A DNA stretch of 34,961 bases. Source: Smithella sp. GTDB lineage: Bacteria > Desulfobacterota > Syntrophia > Syntrophales > Smithellaceae. The stretch spans positions 1-34,961 of the forward strand of contig JBDKUG010000119.1 in the NCBI GenBank assembly GCA_039679815.1, in the 5' to 3' direction. The stretch's first letter is position 1. The number at the start of each line of letters is the position of its first letter. Below, one piece after another: positions 7,233 through 29,350 of this stretch. Under the pieces are notes generated by a model. It was not told the origin of the DNA. It did not search any database and saw only the letters and a list, made by a program, of their open reading frames with translations. A program made the translations under genes and the position numbers.

Positions 7233-7326
7233 GGAGAGATGTCTGAGTGGCCGAAGGAGCACGACTGGAAATCGTGTGTATGCCCACAAAGGTGTACCGC
7301 GGGTTCGAATCCCGCTCTCTCCGCCA
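7233..7326 (+). tRNA. tRNA-Ser (anticodon GGA)
   Basis: Acceptor GGAGAGA/TCTCTCC+GCCA, anticodon arm CACGA-CT-GGA-AA-TCGTG, long variable arm and GGTTCGAATCC T-loop. Confidence 0.96.
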
Positions 7327-7382: not shown

Positions 7383-7476
7383 GGAGAGGTACCGAAGTGG
7401 TCGTAACGGGATCGACTCGAAATCGATTTGGGGGCCACAAGCTCCCACGGGGGTTCGAATCCCCCTCTCTCCGCCA
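7383..7476 (+). tRNA. tRNA-Ser (anticodon CGA)
   Basis: Acceptor GGAGAGG/TCTCTCC+GCCA, anticodon arm ATCGA-CT-CGA-AA-TCGAT, long variable arm and GGTTCGAATCC. Confidence 0.96.
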
Positions 7477-7610: not shown

Positions 7611-7707
7611 TGGCCGGGTCCCGTACAACGAAGGCTTGTGAACCCCGTCAGGTCCGGAAGGAAGCAGCGGCAGCAAATCCCGTCGTGTGTTGCGGTAAAC
7701 CCGGTCA
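7611..7707 (+). ncRNA. ffs: Signal recognition particle 4.5S RNA
   Basis: Conserved domain IV GTCAGGTCCGGAAGGAAGCAGC, closing stem TGGCCGGGT/ACCCGGTCA, located upstream of dnaX. Confidence 0.93.
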
Positions 7708-7764
7708 CCAGTATATAAATGATAAAATTCCGTGGCTTCTAAAAATCAGTGAATTGAGGTTTCA

Positions 7765-18404: not shown

Positions 18405-18435
18405 AAAAAACCCGGCCGTCAAAGCCGGGTTTTTT
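18405..18435 (+). terminator. Rho-independent terminator (bidirectional-looking)
   Basis: AAAAAACCCGGC-CGTCAAA-GCCGGGTTTTTT immediately after the oxidoreductase operon. Confidence 0.85.
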
Positions 18436-18541
18436 ATTCCGGATAAACCAACAGAGAGATTTACTTTAGGGGTACTCAAGGCAATATTCAGGGTTATAAA
18501 CCGGTGCCAGCCGAATAATAGAAACACCTCTCTTTAAATCC

Positions 18542-18570
18542 TTGAAACATCAGAACACTTTTGATACGCT
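18542..18570 (+). promoter_or_regulatory. Putative sigma70 promoter of the aspS-gatC/gatA/gatB operon
   Basis: TTGAAA-17 nt-TACGCT. Confidence 0.45.
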
Positions 18571-18636
18571 TCGCGGCACAAATTTGTTGAAAATACAGGT
18601 TTGTGCTTAATGGTTTGCAAAGAAAGGACTTTTCAC

Positions 18637-20757
18637 ATGAGTTTTTCCCAACGGATCTTTTGCGGACAGGTGACGCCGGATGATGTCGGACGCAGCGTGC
18701 AGCTTTGCGGCTGGGTGGATGCTTACCGGGATCACGGCGGTCTGTTGTTTATTCACCTGCGCGACCGCAGCGGCATCATGCAGATTGTTTTCAGTCCGGA
18801 AATCGCCTCAGCCGATCTGTGCCGGAAGGCTGCCTCTCTTCGCACGGAATATTGCATTTCCATTGTCGGTGATGTCAAAAAACGCCTCGCGGGCACGGAA
18901 AACCCCAACATCGAGACAGGAAATATTGAAGTCATGGTCACCCAATTGACCGTGCTTTCCGAATCCGACGCGCTGCCCTTTGCCGTTTCCGACAAGGCCA
19001 TGGTCGCAGGCTCGTCAACAGCGGGTGCTGACAATGTGGCCGAGGATTTGAGGCTCCAGTACCGATACCTGGACATCCGCCGTCCGCAGATGCGCGACAA
19101 TCTCATGGCCCGTCACCGTATTTTTCAGTGCGTTCGCGAATTTCTCGATTCAAGGGGTTTCGTGGAAATTGAAACGCCGGTCCTGACGGCAAGCACACCG
19201 GAAGGAGCTCGCGATTACCTTGTGCCCAGCCGGGTCCATCCGCAGAATTTTTATGCCCTGCCGCAGTCGCCGCAGCTTTTCAAACAGCTGTTGATGATCG
19301 GCGGAATGGAACGTTATTTCCAGCTGGCGCGCTGCTTCCGCGATGAAGATTTGCGGCCCAACCGGCAGCCGGAGTTTACCCAGCTTGATCTTGAAGCTTC
19401 GTTCATCGACGAAGAATTTCTCTACGAGCTGATTGAAGAACTGACCGTAAAGATGTTCGCGGTTGGCGGCATTGATCTTTCCCGCCCTTTCCCCCGCATG
19501 ACCTATGCGGAGGCAATGAATACGACCGGTTCCGACCGTCCCGACCTGCGCTTCGGTCTGCGCTTTGTCGATGTGACGGATGTGTTTTCAAAAACCAATT
19601 ATTCAATTTTCCGCCAGATCCTTCAGCGTGGCGGGTGCATCAAGGGCATCAACATCAGGGGCCAGTCCGAAAAACTCAGCAAGAACGTCCTGCAGAATGA
19701 ATACGCCAGGGAGATCGTGCCGTCGTTTGGAGCAAGGGGCATGACCTGGATGCGCGCCGAAGGCGGTAAACTGGAATCCAATATTGTACAGTTTTTCAGT
19801 AGTGAGGAGCTGGAAGCGCTGTGGAAAAAATTCAATGTGGCCGACGGGGATGTTCTGATTATGATTGCCGACTCCTCATACAGCGTCGTTACGTCCGCAC
19901 TTGGTCAGCTACGTCTGCATCTGGCGAATCGCCTGGAGCTCATTGACGAAAACTGTTTTTATCCGGTCTGGATCACGGAATTTCCGCTGTTTGAACCTAC
20001 GGATGAGGGGGGTGTTACCTCCAGCCACCATCCGTTTACCGCGCCGGATCGTGTTGATTTTGATCCGAAAAATATTGAAGAGTTGCTCTCGCTTCATTCT
20101 CTCGCTTACGATCTGGTGATGAACGGCGAGGAGCTGGGAGGCGGAAGTATCCGCATCAACAACCGCGATGTTCAGCGTAAAATATTTGCCGCGCTGGGGC
20201 TCAATGAAGAAGAAATGAGGGAAAAATTCGGATTTTTCCTGCGGGCTTTTGATTTTGGCGCGCCGCCGCACGGCGGTCTCGCCCTCGGGATGGACCGCAC
20301 GGTGTCGATGATCCTGCGGACCCCATCTATCCGGGACGTCATTGCCTTTCCCAAAAACCGCAGCGCAAGCTGTCCCCTGACCGGTGCGCCCTCCGCGGTG
20401 AAGCGCGGACAACTGGCCGAACTGGGGCTTTTAAATCTGGGCGGTCAGGATGTCCTGCCCGGAACCGCCGAAAAGGAAAACAAGGTCGATCATTTGTCCT
20501 GGGTCTCGCGCATCGGTATTGCCGCCCATGAACGCCCCGTTATCGAAGAAATTATTGCCGAGGCGGAGGAACTGGCTTTGATCGCCTTCCAGAAGGCAGG
20601 CAAAGAAGAACCGATGTTTACCGTCGCCCCTGTTTCAAACCGCACACGGCCCGGTACAGAAGAAAAACGATCGGCGCTTGCGCAAAAAGGTCAGCTGCTC
20701 AAAAGCGCGCCTTCGGTAAAGGGGAATTACTTTAAAGTCGCCAGCATTCTGGAATAA
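18637..20757 (+). CDS. aspS: Non-discriminating aspartyl-tRNA(Asp/Asn) synthetase with C-terminal GatC-like fusion
   Basis: RDHGG (His typical of non-discriminating enzymes), LPQSPQLFKQLLM, FRDEDLRPNRQPEFTQLDLE and PPHGGLALGMDR motifs, plus an extra ~95-aa GatC-like tail. ATG 18637 has an AGGA SD. Confidence 0.93.
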   Translation: MSFSQRIFCGQVTPDDVGRSVQLCGWVDAYRDHGGLLFIHLRDRSGIMQIVFSPEIASADLCRKAASLRTEYCISIVGDVKKRLAGTENPNIETGNIEVMVTQLTVLSESDALPFAVSDKAMVAGSSTAGADNVAEDLRLQYRYLDIRRPQMRDNLMARHRIFQCVREFLDSRGFVEIETPVLTASTPEGARDYLVPSRVHPQNFYALPQSPQLFKQLLMIGGMERYFQLARCFRDEDLRPNRQPEFTQLDLEASFIDEEFLYELIEELTVKMFAVGGIDLSRPFPRMTYAEAMNTTGSDRPDLRFGLRFVDVTDVFSKTNYSIFRQILQRGGCIKGINIRGQSEKLSKNVLQNEYAREIVPSFGARGMTWMRAEGGKLESNIVQFFSSEELEALWKKFNVADGDVLIMIADSSYSVVTSALGQLRLHLANRLELIDENCFYPVWITEFPLFEPTDEGGVTSSHHPFTAPDRVDFDPKNIEELLSLHSLAYDLVMNGEELGGGSIRINNRDVQRKIFAALGLNEEEMREKFGFFLRAFDFGAPPHGGLALGMDRTVSMILRTPSIRDVIAFPKNRSASCPLTGAPSAVKRGQLAELGLLNLGGQDVLPGTAEKENKVDHLSWVSRIGIAAHERPVIEEIIAEAEELALIAFQKAGKEEPMFTVAPVSNRTRPGTEEKRSALAQKGQLLKSAPSVKGNYFKVASILE

Positions 20758-20772
20758 CAGGGAGACAGTTCT

Positions 20773-21972
20773 ATGGATTCTATTTTTGTTTATCTCAATC
20801 CCGAAACAGCGTCCGAAGGGAGCGGTCCTCTGCAGGGTTTGAAAATTGCGATTCAGCCCAACATATCCGCATCAGGCTGGCCAACGGACGCCGGCTCCAA
20901 CGCCCTCATCAATTTTAAAGCGCTCGAAGACGCAACGCTGGTGAACAGGCTCCGTGAGGGGGGAGCCGTGATTCAAGGTTTAACCCACATGAGTGAATTC
21001 GGTTTTGGTCTAGCGGGAAGCAGAGCCGGGGATGCCGTCAGGCGCGGCGCCGTGGATGCTGAACTGGTTTTAGACCTGATGGGGGAAAGCCGCCTGGCTG
21101 CCCAGCGCACCTCCGTTTGCGGTTTCAAGCCCAGCTACGGTCTGATATCCCGCTATGGTCTCATCGGTCTGATTCCATCGATGGAATGCTGTGGCGTTCT
21201 TTCCCGCAGTCTGAAAAATATCCGGGAGGTGGTGAAGATCATAGCCGGTCCGGATGAAAGGGATTTTGCGCTTCCCGATGAAAAGCCGCTGGACTTTTCC
21301 CCGCAAAAAATGAATCCGGAAAAAACAACCGTTGGTGTGATCACCGAAACGAAAAGCGGACTGCAAGGTGATCAGGAAGGCGCTTTTCATGCCGCTATCG
21401 ATGAGCTGAAAGAAACGGGTTTCCGCATCAAAGAAATGTCTTTTCCCGATTTTTCTCTTTTTTCACTGGTCCATAAAATCGTGGGTTCCGTCGAGGCGTC
21501 CTCCTGCGCCGGGCGCTACGATTCGGTACGCTATGGTCATCGTGTGCTGGGCGCAAAAAACTGGAACGAAATGTACCTGTCCTCGCGCGAAGAGTCCTTT
21601 GGCCTGCTTGTGAAAAGCTATCTGTTTCAGGGCGCGTTTTTCCAGTTTCAGCGCTACGACGCCTATGAAGACGCCTGCCGTATCCGCGCGAGGCTGCACG
21701 CGGATATGCAGAAAACCATTTCGAAGGTGGATTTCCTGGTTCTCCCGGCTGCAAACGAAGTTCCAACAAACACAACGGCTTCGCTTGCCGGCACATACGA
21801 ACAATTTTCCCCGACGGTTTTTGCCAATGTGACCGGCCAGCCCGCGCTGTACCTGCCGCCTGAGTCCGGCCAGGAGCGATTCGGGTTTCAGCTTTCCGGG
21901 CCGAGGCTCAGCGACGCGCGGCTTTTCGCGCTGGGCGAGCATCTTCTGAATCTGCGCCAGGGAGGTAAATAG
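20773..21972 (+). CDS. gatA: Divergent, truncated GatA (amidase fold), catalytic residues apparently lost
   Basis: GFKPSYGLISRYGL, EASSCAGRYDSVRYG and FANVTGQPA match GatA. The amidase signature is degenerate. Located between aspS-gatC and gatB. Confidence 0.82.
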   Translation: MDSIFVYLNPETASEGSGPLQGLKIAIQPNISASGWPTDAGSNALINFKALEDATLVNRLREGGAVIQGLTHMSEFGFGLAGSRAGDAVRRGAVDAELVLDLMGESRLAAQRTSVCGFKPSYGLISRYGLIGLIPSMECCGVLSRSLKNIREVVKIIAGPDERDFALPDEKPLDFSPQKMNPEKTTVGVITETKSGLQGDQEGAFHAAIDELKETGFRIKEMSFPDFSLFSLVHKIVGSVEASSCAGRYDSVRYGHRVLGAKNWNEMYLSSREESFGLLVKSYLFQGAFFQFQRYDAYEDACRIRARLHADMQKTISKVDFLVLPAANEVPTNTTASLAGTYEQFSPTVFANVTGQPALYLPPESGQERFGFQLSGPRLSDARLFALGEHLLNLRQGGK

Positions 21973-21974
21973 TG

Positions 21975-23408
21975 ATGGAATTTGAAGCGGTCATCGGACT
22001 GGAAATCCATGTTGAACTCAATTGCAAAACAAAATTATTCTGCGATTGCCCCAATAATCCCGGCGACGAACCGAACATCAACACCTGTCCTGTCTGCCTG
22101 TGGTTCCCGGGCGCCGTCCCCCGCTTGAGCCAGGAGGCGTTGGAAAAGGCAGCGATTTTATGCCTGGCACTGGGCGCCGAGCTCCAGCCAAAAAGCGCTT
22201 TTGACCAGAAGGTCTATTATTATCCGGATCTGCCGAAAGGCTACCAGTTGTCCCAGGCCCATCTTCCGCTTTCCCGGGGCGGCGGCATTGATATTACGGA
22301 CGAAGACGGCACAACGAAAAGACTGCGCATTCATCACATCCACATGGAGGAAGATGTCGCCAAGCTGGTGCATGAAATGGAGGGGCGTGTGCCGATCAGT
22401 CTGGTGGATTTCAACCGTGCCGGCTCGCCGCTGGTGGAAATTGTCACAGAGCCGGATTTTCGCACGCCATATCAGGCAATGGAATTTTTAAAGGCGCTGC
22501 GGACACAGGTTCGCTACGCGGGCTCCTCCGAGTGCAGCATGGAAAATGGCACCATGCGCGTCGATGCCAATATTTCCATTCGTCCGAAAGGCACCGGACA
22601 GATGAATACCAAGGTGGAAGTTAAAAACATGAATTCTGTCCGTCATGTGGGCGATGCCATTGCGCATGAAATCACCCGCCAGAGCGCATGTGTCCAGGCG
22701 AATGAAGCCGTGGTACTGCATACCCGTTTGTGGGACCCGGATAAAAAAGTCACCCTGCCGATGCGGGCCAAGTTTGAAGGCCCGTGCGTTCCCGATCCGA
22801 CGGTGCCGGCAATCGAGTTGTCGGCGCAGGAGATCGAACTTCTGCGCTCGCGGCTTCCGGAAATGCCCGCCGCAAGGGCCAAGCGCTTTGTTTTACAGCA
22901 TGGCCTGACCGGTGAAGAAGCAGCCTTTTTGAGCACCGATCCTGAGGTTGCGGGTTATTTTGAAGCGCTACTTACAGAAGGGATCGCGCCCCGCACCGCC
23001 ATGCACTGGCTTACCACGCAGCTTATTCCGGCTGTCAGGGACCGCGGCCAGGAACTGGGCACAACGCCTGTGACCCCGGCCCGCTTCGCCGTGCTGCTGA
23101 AAATGCTGTCCAATGACGAAATCAACGCCAACGCAGCCCGCGAAGTGCTGTTCCATCTGTTTGACTCTGACCAAGCGCCGGAATCCATTGTACATGCTAA
23201 GGGTTTTAAGCAGGTTTCCGACCGCGCTGAACTTGATTCGCTTATCGACAGGGTTTTGGGTGAACAGCCGTCGGCAGTCAATGATTTCCGTGCCGGCCAA
23301 AGCAAAGCCATGGGCTTTCTGATCGGCCAGGTCATGCAGGCCTCCGGCGGGAAAGCCAATCCGAAAATCATCCGTGAACTGCTGGCAAAAAAACTGGGAA
23401 AGATTTAA
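21975..23408 (+). CDS. gatB: Asp-tRNA(Asn)/Glu-tRNA(Gln) amidotransferase subunit B
   Basis: VIGLEIHVEL..KTKLFC, YPDLPKGYQ, HMEED, DFNRAG.PLVEIVTEPD and VEVKNMNS motifs, plus a YqeY-like tail. Start is ATG 21975 or GTG 21972. Confidence 0.94.
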   Translation: MEFEAVIGLEIHVELNCKTKLFCDCPNNPGDEPNINTCPVCLWFPGAVPRLSQEALEKAAILCLALGAELQPKSAFDQKVYYYPDLPKGYQLSQAHLPLSRGGGIDITDEDGTTKRLRIHHIHMEEDVAKLVHEMEGRVPISLVDFNRAGSPLVEIVTEPDFRTPYQAMEFLKALRTQVRYAGSSECSMENGTMRVDANISIRPKGTGQMNTKVEVKNMNSVRHVGDAIAHEITRQSACVQANEAVVLHTRLWDPDKKVTLPMRAKFEGPCVPDPTVPAIELSAQEIELLRSRLPEMPAARAKRFVLQHGLTGEEAAFLSTDPEVAGYFEALLTEGIAPRTAMHWLTTQLIPAVRDRGQELGTTPVTPARFAVLLKMLSNDEINANAAREVLFHLFDSDQAPESIVHAKGFKQVSDRAELDSLIDRVLGEQPSAVNDFRAGQSKAMGFLIGQVMQASGGKANPKIIRELLAKKLGKI

Positions 23409-28158: not shown

Positions 28159-28291
28159 TGTGTCACCATGGGTTTGACAGCTATCACAAATCGGAGGAAC
28201 CGGTCAATTGATCAATTTGCATTTTCTTGAGATAGAGGCCGGCCTGTGCTAGAGGTTTGCGCATCGATATGTGAACAGCAAGGAGCCGGAT

Positions 28292-29350
28292 TTGCAGGTA
28301 CCGACCAATTTTATATCACTGACAACAAAAATGATTTTGAAAGTGCAGCCGCTCACTCATTTTTATTTGCGCCAGTGGAAAGAACGTGCCTTGCGGATTC
28401 CCGATCCGGAATTGCGCAAACAGGCGCTTGCCAGCATTGCAACGAAAGCGTTTCACTGCGAAGGCGGCGCTCTTTACGGCCTGCTGGCGGGTGTTCATTA
28501 TAAAGAAGCAATTGCTTTTATCGTTGCGTACCAGACCATCAGCGACTATCTGGACAATCTCTGCGACCGCAGCACATCGCAGGACCCGGAAGACTTCCGC
28601 GCGCTGCACGAATCCATGCTTCAGGCCCTGTCGCCGGATATGCCGCCGAGCGCCTATTACCGCTTCAGGCGGGAACAGGACGACGGTGGATATTTGAGTG
28701 CGCTGACGCAGACATGCAGGAAAGTCCTGAACGGTATTCCCAACTATCATCTCGGTGCGGCAGCCCTCCGGGAACTGGCAGAATTTTATGTTGATTTGCA
28801 GGTGCACAAGCATGTTCGAAAAGAAGAGCGCCTGCCGCGTCTGCAGGCGTGGTTTGAAGGCCACGCAAATGAACTGCCTCCCATGGCCTGGTATGAATTT
28901 GCCGCCTGCACCGGCTCTACACTGGGGATTTTTTGCATTGTTTCACAACTCTTCAATCCGTCAGCATCCGCCGCGCTGATTACTAAAATTAAAAACGCTT
29001 ATTTCCCCTGGGTTCAGGGATTGCATATCCTCCTGGATTATCTGATTGATCAGGAGGAGGATCGCAGAGGCCAGGATTTAAATTTTTGCTCATACTATGA
29101 AAACAAAGAACAAATGGCCGAACGTATTGGTTATTTTTATCATCGGGCGCAGGCGAGTGTCATGCGTCTGCCCGACACTAAATTTCACCGGTTAATTACC
29201 CGTGGCCTTTTGAGCATCTATCTGGCCGATCATAAAGTTACCCGCCAAAAAGATGTCCGGGACATTGCCAAAAAACTTTTGAGCCTGGGTGGGAGCCACA
29301 CGTTTTTCTTTTATCTGCACTGCTGGATTTACCGCCGTCTGACCGGTTAG
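28292..29350 (+). CDS. YtpB/DUF2600 family tetraprenyl-beta-curcumene synthase-like terpene cyclase
   Basis: FHCEGG, IVAYQTISDYLDNLCDRS, DLQVHKH, WYEFAACTGSTLG and GLHILLDYLIDQEED motifs. TTG 28292 is preceded by AGGAG. Confidence 0.85.
   Translation: MQVPTNFISLTTKMILKVQPLTHFYLRQWKERALRIPDPELRKQALASIATKAFHCEGGALYGLLAGVHYKEAIAFIVAYQTISDYLDNLCDRSTSQDPEDFRALHESMLQALSPDMPPSAYYRFRREQDDGGYLSALTQTCRKVLNGIPNYHLGAAALRELAEFYVDLQVHKHVRKEERLPRLQAWFEGHANELPPMAWYEFAACTGSTLGIFCIVSQLFNPSASAALITKIKNAYFPWVQGLHILLDYLIDQEEDRRGQDLNFCSYYENKEQMAERIGYFYHRAQASVMRLPDTKFHRLITRGLLSIYLADHKVTRQKDVRDIAKKLLSLGGSHTFFFYLHCWIYRRLTG

Follow-up and report, generated by a model that had tools for sequence, protein, structure and literature searches.

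What can a GatA protein contribute to a tRNA amidotransferase once the residues needed for glutamine hydrolysis are gone? The standard example of a glutaminase that works through a tunnel with a tRNA-dependent transamidase is GatCAB, which is essential in most bacteria. The question is raised by a stretch of 34,961 nucleotides from Smithella sp. (assembly GCA_039679815.1, contig JBDKUG010000119.1, positions 1 to 34,961; hereafter the window). It carries a three-gene cassette on the forward strand which encodes a fusion of aspartyl-tRNA synthetase (AspRS) with a GatC-like tail, a GatA homologue (GatA', 20773..21972) and a GatB homologue (GatB'), in that order. From its sequence, the cassette appears to be a glutaminase-dead, AspRS-tethered and transferable variant of GatCAB. 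The reading that we favour, by a modest preference, is that GatA' serves as a scaffold or tunnel subunit without catalytic activity in a second Asn-transamidosome, one that does not depend on glutamine and is probably fed with ammonia.

Loss of the glutaminase residues in GatA'

GatA' is encoded by an intact open reading frame of 399 residues, with a GGAG ribosome-binding site 8 nt 5' of its ATG. It belongs to the amidase superfamily by its fold and by its match to the Pfam Amidase model (PF01425; 177.4 bits, cut-off 27). With 230 bits against a cut-off of 481.1, it falls outside the gatA equivalog family TIGR00132. When the genome was searched with the TIGR00132 profile, GatA' scored 186.4 + 42.3 bits and the canonical gatA of the same genome 633.7. 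Databases label such proteins as GatA or "amidase family protein".

Residue equivalences were taken from a HMMER alignment of GatA' to GatA of S. aureus (2df4_A), and 78 family members (the one in the window and those of 77 loci) were aligned with 53 canonical GatA sequences. The catalytic Lys79 of S. aureus corresponds to Gln28 (Gln in 77/78 members; Lys in 53/53 canonical sequences) and the nucleophile Ser178 to Glu105 (Glu in 78/78; Ser in 53/53), exactly as an earlier note, made from the bare sequence, had read them. That note took the whole Ser-cisSer-Lys triad to be lost; this was correct for the lysine and the nucleophilic serine, but the cis-serine, Ser154, is kept as Ser83 (Ser in 75/78; 53/53 in canonical GatA). 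The loss of glutamine-binding residues that it deduced from the change of KRRI to KSYL was confirmed. Arg358 is replaced by Tyr283 (Tyr in 66 members, Phe in 9, Cys in 2 and Leu in 1; Arg in 52/53 canonical sequences), while Asp425 falls within a three-residue gap of the 2df4_A alignment or corresponds to Phe345 (Phe in 71/78; Asp in 52/53). The glutamine of yeast mitochondrial GatFAB is reported to be bound by the equivalent Asp and Arg (D418 and R334), and its Ser-cisSer-Lys scissors to be conserved with the bacterial enzymes (PMC4027206). Around the old site, Tyr309 has become His234 (His in 76/78; Tyr in 53/53), Thr175 has become Leu102 (Leu, Met, Ile or Phe in 75/78; Thr in 52/53) and Asp211 has become Glu138 (Glu in 78/78). 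Arg200 aligns with Arg127 of GatA', which is nearly invariant in the family alignments.

The family also lacks 47 N-terminal residues of canonical GatA, close to the 50 or so estimated before, and a loop of 20 residues after residue 81. A deletion of the segment NPW...PGGSSGGS had been claimed; it holds for this loop, whereas the Gly/Ser-rich motif itself survives as GSRAGD. The residue losses cannot be ascribed to chance, because identical replacements recur throughout the family. GatA' therefore lacks the residues needed for glutamine hydrolysis, from which we infer that the activity has been lost.

Several positions (W36, P37, W264, N265, M267, Q291 and C302) are invariant or nearly so in the 78 members and variable in canonical GatA, and these may form a novel interface, perhaps with AspRS or GatB'. 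Three short GatA-like representatives outside the family (P0151, P0180 and P0193) were also seen to lack the loop before the Gly/Ser-rich motif. Their triads are in mixed states: the Lys and the nucleophilic Ser are kept in P0151, both are Glu in P0180, and in P0193 the Lys is replaced by Asp with the Ser kept. Degenerate forms of GatA may have arisen more than once.

Fold and selection

An AlphaFold2 model of GatA', built from a 63-row alignment, reached a mean predicted local distance difference test score (pLDDT) of 91.3 and a predicted template modelling score (pTM) of 0.92. On comparing the model with the PDB by Foldseek, the best matches were found to be the GatA chains 3kfu_E, 3h0l_A, 4wj3_A and 2df4_A (TMq 0.88-0.91), which belong to the transamidosomes of T. 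thermophilus and P. aeruginosa and to the enzymes of Aquifex and S. aureus; other amidases came next. There were 109 matches at E <= 0.001, and all those listed are chains of GatA or of other members of the amidase family. Statements in this text on the proximity of residues in GatA' rest on homology to solved GatA structures and not on distances in the model.

GatA' is under purifying selection. The ratio of non-synonymous to synonymous substitution rates (dN/dS) between the window and seven relatives was 0.16-0.26, a comparison which the earlier note had proposed. In the same pairs, the values were 0.05-0.09 for AspRS-GatC (0.185 on one fragment of 67 codons) and 0.09-0.13 for GatB', so that GatA' is about two to three times more relaxed than its neighbours in the cassette. 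It is also the least conserved of the three, with 55-72% identity across loci against 73-87% for its partners (four closest relatives excluded). The reading frame is intact in 80/80 loci. These values indicate that GatA' is functional, though less constrained than its partners. The view of the earlier note that the protein is a pseudo-enzyme retained for a structural role is thus supported by sequence, by fold, by purifying selection and by a fixed place between its partners.

The cassette and its partner genes

The AspRS-GatC fusion (18637..20757, forward strand) consists of an AspRS core of bacterial type, which includes a GAD domain, and a C-terminal GatC-like tail. Its start is likely the ATG at 18637, and relatives begin at MSFSQR; the mechanically called reading frame starts from a TTG at 18601. 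The core matches the Pfam models tRNA-synt_2 (390 bits), GAD and OB fold, and aspS models at 694-758 bits. The architecture has already been catalogued by NCBIfam as NF009460 (PRK12820), a bifunctional AspRS/GatC. Residues 5-718 of the fusion align with positions 10-723 of the 723 in this model at 1347.2 bits, which is 32 bits under the cut-off of 1379; this score was obtained with the TTG-started frame, in which the first 12 codons are probably surplus. The model names the fusion only and is silent on a glutaminase-dead GatA partner.

The tail (20443..20754, forward strand) comprises the last 104 residues and is divergent from free-standing GatC. Pfam GatC matches 36/37 aligned fusion tails at E <= 1 (best 6.1e-9), and the tail of the window at 20 bits (E 8.2e-4; cut-off 23 bits). 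Its match to S. aureus GatC (2df4_C) is end-to-end and weak (E 0.2), and it was not found when the genome was searched with the TIGR00135 profile.

GatA' begins 15 nt after the fusion gene. GatB' (21975..23408, forward strand) is predicted to be an intact tRNA-dependent kinase/transamidase subunit with a YqeY tail; it scores 324.8 bits with GatB_N, 140.3 with GatB_Yqey, 554.4 with NF004012 (cut-off 338) and 474.8 with TIGR00133 (cut-off 314.8). Its start overlaps or abuts the stop of GatA' (TAGTGATG) and a GGAGG lies inside the 3' end of GatA', a junction which suggests translational coupling. On aligning 70 GatB' rows with canonical GatB, of which 9 sequences were used, 84 positions were found to be invariant in both, including E11, H13, K80, E126, D128 and E156. 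All catalytic and Mg-binding positions common to canonical GatB are kept. There is no gap at the site of the 3-10 turn of bacterial GatB, which is described as reading the U1-A72 pair of the tRNA (PMC2811023). The first 300 residues of GatB' were observed to be 83-95% identical across at least seven phyla. Judged by their sequences, the partners of GatA' look active.

A hairpin followed by a T-run (cccggc, 7-nt loop, gccggg, tttttt; 18405..18438, forward strand) was read by eye upstream of the fusion and is absent from the consensus terminator scan. It is likely to be the terminator of the preceding Fe-S/NADH-dehydrogenase-like genes, delimiting the cassette as a transcription unit of its own; the gene directly downstream lies on the opposite strand. 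The promoter and terminator scan of the window gave fewer matches than shuffled sequences did, no sigma-54 promoter was seen by eye in 18440-18636, and an Rfam scan of the window gave no regulatory RNA near the cassette. A complex was predicted for GatA' with the GatC tail and the first 300 residues of GatB' (1-300). A control in which chain 1 was replaced was likewise high-scoring; hence the prediction carries no weight for or against binding.

Distribution and probable horizontal movement

A protein search listed 120 clusters with 62-100% identity to GatA', under names that include Smithellaceae, Syntrophales, Dehalococcoidia, Chloroflexota, Anammoximicrobium and Acidobacteria. In an exhaustive search, a step in score separated the GatA'-like representatives (the first 29 rows, 457.7-168 bits) from amidases of canonical length. 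Gene order was studied in the best 80 of 292 stretches that encode a relative of GatA', drawn from contigs of one genome per species. The AspRS-GatC fusion lies upstream and GatB' downstream of GatA' in 77/77 of these loci with room for each; the gene for GatA' is accompanied by gatB and by the GatC-like element. Beside the cassette, neither a further recurrent gene family nor a conserved tRNA gene was found in the 80 loci.

Among 301 sampled genomes of the phylum, four, the Smithella genome counted, carry a full-length member (over 500 bits), and the cassette order is identical in 4/4 relatives from this sample. One further member, in genome G240, is interrupted by a run of N, and the other nine matches at E <= 1e-60 are frames of 484-567 residues, the size of ordinary GatA. 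The G240 gene had at one point been taken for a truncated GatA' of a congener (residues 241-399 only), a candidate that was rejected on account of the run of N at the locus. In a distant carrier (G233:C135:10826-14049), two more amidase-family genes of 485 and 500 residues, which score 150-200 bits with gatA, were seen just 3' of the cassette. Record titles and runs that contain DNA of the cassette suggest digesters, wastewater, sediments and hydrocarbon-degrading cultures as its habitats. Four runs are labelled RNA-Seq and are probably DNA; the short contigs from them match parts of the cassette, GatA' included, at 90-100% and have no bearing on expression.

The cassette is an add-on beside canonical GatCAB, and GatA' is a paralogue. 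The Smithella genome, which is 91% complete, carries a canonical gatC-gatA-gatB on contig C62 (94, 633.7 and 633.7 bits), and contig C379 has a canonical aspS (799 bits). Glutaminyl-tRNA synthetase (GlnRS) is present; in a profile search of this 91%-complete genome neither asparaginyl-tRNA synthetase (AsnRS) nor AsnB scored over the cut-off. A single tRNA-Asn(GUU) was found, of ordinary type with U1-A72 and G73. The GlnRS match itself (G000:C165:658-2232, reverse strand, outside the window; 784.3 bits, over the cut-off) was observed to contain one in-frame TGA, which could be a sequencing error, a selenocysteine codon or the sign of a broken gene; a tRNA-Gln(CUG) at C165:557-630 adjoins it. 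Among 50 carrier genomes, canonical gatA scored over the cut-off in 45 and was cut by contig ends in two more, and three genomes of unknown completeness gave none; it is also present in 5/5 carriers of another search.

Relationships among the cassettes do not track those among their hosts. In a concatenated tree of AspRS-GatC and GatB' (59 rows), 17 changes of phylum label are required against a minimum of 8, and the Smithella rows are scattered. In 20 genomes in which both proteins could be paired, identity to the Smithella genome was 53-86% for canonical GatA and 57-70% for GatA', with a Spearman rho of -0.11; GatA' was the more similar of the two in 14/20. Five close relatives show 83-86% identity for canonical GatA and only 57-61% for GatA'. 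These results fit transfer of the cassette among anaerobes of many phyla, to which mis-binning of metagenome-assembled genomes could contribute.

A proposed glutamine-independent Asn-transamidosome

In the favoured model, the AspRS part of the fusion would charge tRNA-Asn with aspartate, and the GatC tail would clamp GatA' to GatB', as GatC does in GatCAB. GatB' would then phosphorylate and amidate the Asp-tRNA(Asn). The nitrogen would most likely come from free ammonia or ammonium, since GatA' should be unable to release ammonia from glutamine. The ATP for glutamine synthesis would be spared, which could matter in ammonium-rich anaerobic habitats. The physical assembly, the Asn-tRNA(Asn) product, the ammonia donor and the energetic benefit are all inferred. 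Bacterial GatCAB can use ammonium. Yeast GatFAB is reported to transamidate with 20 mM NH4Cl in place of glutamine, and a truncation that disturbs its GatA site to lower glutaminase activity and raise NH4Cl-driven transamidation (PMC4027206). According to a review, GatA needs GatC for folding and for GatB binding (PMC2330236); hence GatB' may in turn need the body of GatA. No sequence rule that distinguishes discriminating from non-discriminating AspRS is given in PMC4206432.

A number of observations weigh against this model. The entrance residue Thr175 has become Leu, Met, Ile or Phe and the pocket is lined by bulky hydrophobic residues (Leu102, Met103, Tyr283 and Phe345), so that the old entry may be blocked and no path for ammonia is apparent. 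Glu105, Gln28 and His234 are conserved beyond the needs of a merely dead site; therefore, the old glutaminase site may not be simply dead. GatB' shows fixed changes against canonical GatB at 23 positions, among them R78 to Q and N80 to V, the two neighbours of the conserved Lys80, and the loss of three residues (HDY) that turns the DYRYFPDP motif into GPCVPDP; an altered chemistry is possible. AsnRS is present in 11/50 carriers. Finally, as nearly all carriers have canonical gatA alongside, the cassette would be dispensable for Asn-tRNA synthesis.

A more specific form of the model, which we regard as speculative and would not expect to hold, is that the old glutaminase pocket has been rebuilt as an ammonium port. 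Glu105, together with His234 and Gln28, would capture and deprotonate cytoplasmic NH4+, and Glu138 and Arg127 would pass the ammonia through the retained tunnel to GatB'. In canonical GatA, Thr175 presumably lies at the tunnel entrance and Arg200 and Asp211 presumably take part in the tunnel. With the covering loop and the N-terminal helices gone, the site would be exposed to solvent. The change of the entrance Thr and of several pocket residues to bulky, hydrophobic ones speaks against such a port.

Alternative explanations

The near-invariance of the old site could also mean that GatA' is still a hydrolase. Its site would have been rebuilt, for instance from Ser83 with Glu105 or from Glu105 with His234, so as to draw on an amide that is not glutamine and may be more hydrophobic, with the ammonia still passing to GatB'. 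Not only are Glu105, Gln28 and His234 fixed at or near the old site, with Glu138 invariant and Ser83 kept in most members, but the pocket residues have also turned into Tyr, Phe, Leu and Met instead of varying at random. The earlier note had likewise considered that Ser83 or Ser106 might act as shifted catalytic residues, and the comparison of the family largely speaks against this. Ser83 is the old cis-Ser154 itself. It is replaced by Asp in three distant members linked to the cassette, which keep Gln28, Glu105, Glu138, His234 and Tyr/Phe283, and by Asp or Gly in several distant representatives; therefore, there is no serine nucleophile common to the whole family. (Among 13 representatives at a greater distance, Gln occupies the Lys position in 9, Glu in 1 and Pro in 3, and Glu occupies the nucleophile position in 12 and Gln in 1.) Position 106 is variable (Ser in 54 of the 78 members, Ala in 17, Cys in 4 and Gly in 3). 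No new invariant Lys or Ser was found on comparing the 78 members with the 53 canonical sequences, as Lys119 and Lys281 are conserved in both groups. The 20-residue loop and the 47 N-terminal residues, both of which contribute to the canonical site, are gone. We therefore consider a surviving hydrolase unlikely. Somewhat less likely still is that the cassette serves another chemistry, in which GatB' transfers a different nucleophile, the activated Asp-tRNA is diverted, or the product enters a non-translational pathway. Such a role would account for the redundancy with canonical GatCAB and at times with AsnRS, for the fixed differences of GatB' around its lysine and at the HDY deletion, and for the unusual conservation of GatB' and AspRS-GatC across phyla (73-86% identity). 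It is at odds with the retention of all canonical catalytic and Mg-binding positions and of the intact YqeY tRNA-binding tail, with the lack of a conserved partner gene in the 80 loci, and with the finding of just one, ordinary tRNA-Asn.

It is most improbable that GatA' is a relic or a decoy, that is, a decaying duplicate or a mimic of GatA that titrates or regulates canonical GatCAB. The idea draws on its faster evolution and lower conservation within the cassette, and on the precedent of a GatA-like protein acting on the transamidosome, the P. aeruginosa toxin Tse8, which was reported to target it (bioRxiv 10.1101/733030). On the other hand, the dN/dS values are far below 1, no locus has a broken frame, the position between the two partners is fixed, and a decoy role is unnecessary given that the cassette has its own GatC tail and GatB'.

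Comparison with known systems

The closest counterparts of the cassette are bacterial GatCAB and the asparagine transamidosome (PDB 4WJ3, 3KFU; 2DF4, 3H0L), with which the predicted folds and roles of the subunits are alike; an AspRS partner, a GatC-like element and a tRNA-Asn with U1-A72 are likewise shared. The cassette differs in that the glutaminase site, together with the N-terminal stretch and the loop of GatA, is gone, in that GatC is covalently fused to AspRS, and in that it is a second copy beside canonical gatCAB. Yeast mitochondrial GatFAB (PDB 4N0H, 4N0I) is a heterotrimer which, according to the report cited above (PMC4027206), is able to run on NH4Cl without glutamine. Unlike GatA', it keeps the full scissors and the binding of glutamine, and its third subunit GatF is not fused to a synthetase.

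AtzE, which acts with AtzG as 1-carboxybiuret hydrolase (PDB 6C62), offers a different parallel: it is a GatA homologue with a changed job that has kept a GatC-like partner. It ranks 25 among the fold matches of GatA', and 2/37 fusion tails weakly match the AtzG-like Pfam family. We take AtzE to be an active amidase that works without GatB, whereas GatA' is without the catalytic residues and is still paired with a GatB'. In full-text searches, whose coverage of subscription journals is limited, no literature was found on an AspRS-GatC fusion or on a GatA without the triad; the fusion is thus known as a curated model, for which no paper was found.

Other features of the window

Two tRNA matches of 91 nt with equal scores, 60 nt apart (7233-7323 and 7383-7473, forward strand), suggest two long-arm tRNAs in tandem. 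Next comes a small signal recognition particle RNA (7612-7709, forward strand), upstream of dnaX and recR. A DUF2600 protein (28271-29350, forward strand; 477.9 bits) adjoins an HI0933-like flavoprotein and a GGDEF protein and is unrelated to the cassette.

Implications

If the favoured reading is correct, the cassette would be a natural version of the tRNA amidotransferase with an inactive glutaminase and a GatC clamp fused to AspRS, the whole being a spare module that moves between phyla. It raises the question whether a tRNA amidotransferase can run on free ammonia in vivo, and what the body of GatA contributes apart from catalysis. Another question is why two systems are retained by anaerobes with a limited energy supply, among them Smithella, Syntrophus and Dehalococcoidia. 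The biochemistry is within reach, as Syntrophus buswellii DM-2 (locus L059) is a carrier in culture. Should the pocket prove to be an ammonium port, a glutamine amidotransferase would have been turned in nature into an ammonia-gated enzyme with its tunnel retained, and the cassette would provide energy-limited anaerobes with a transferable three-gene module.

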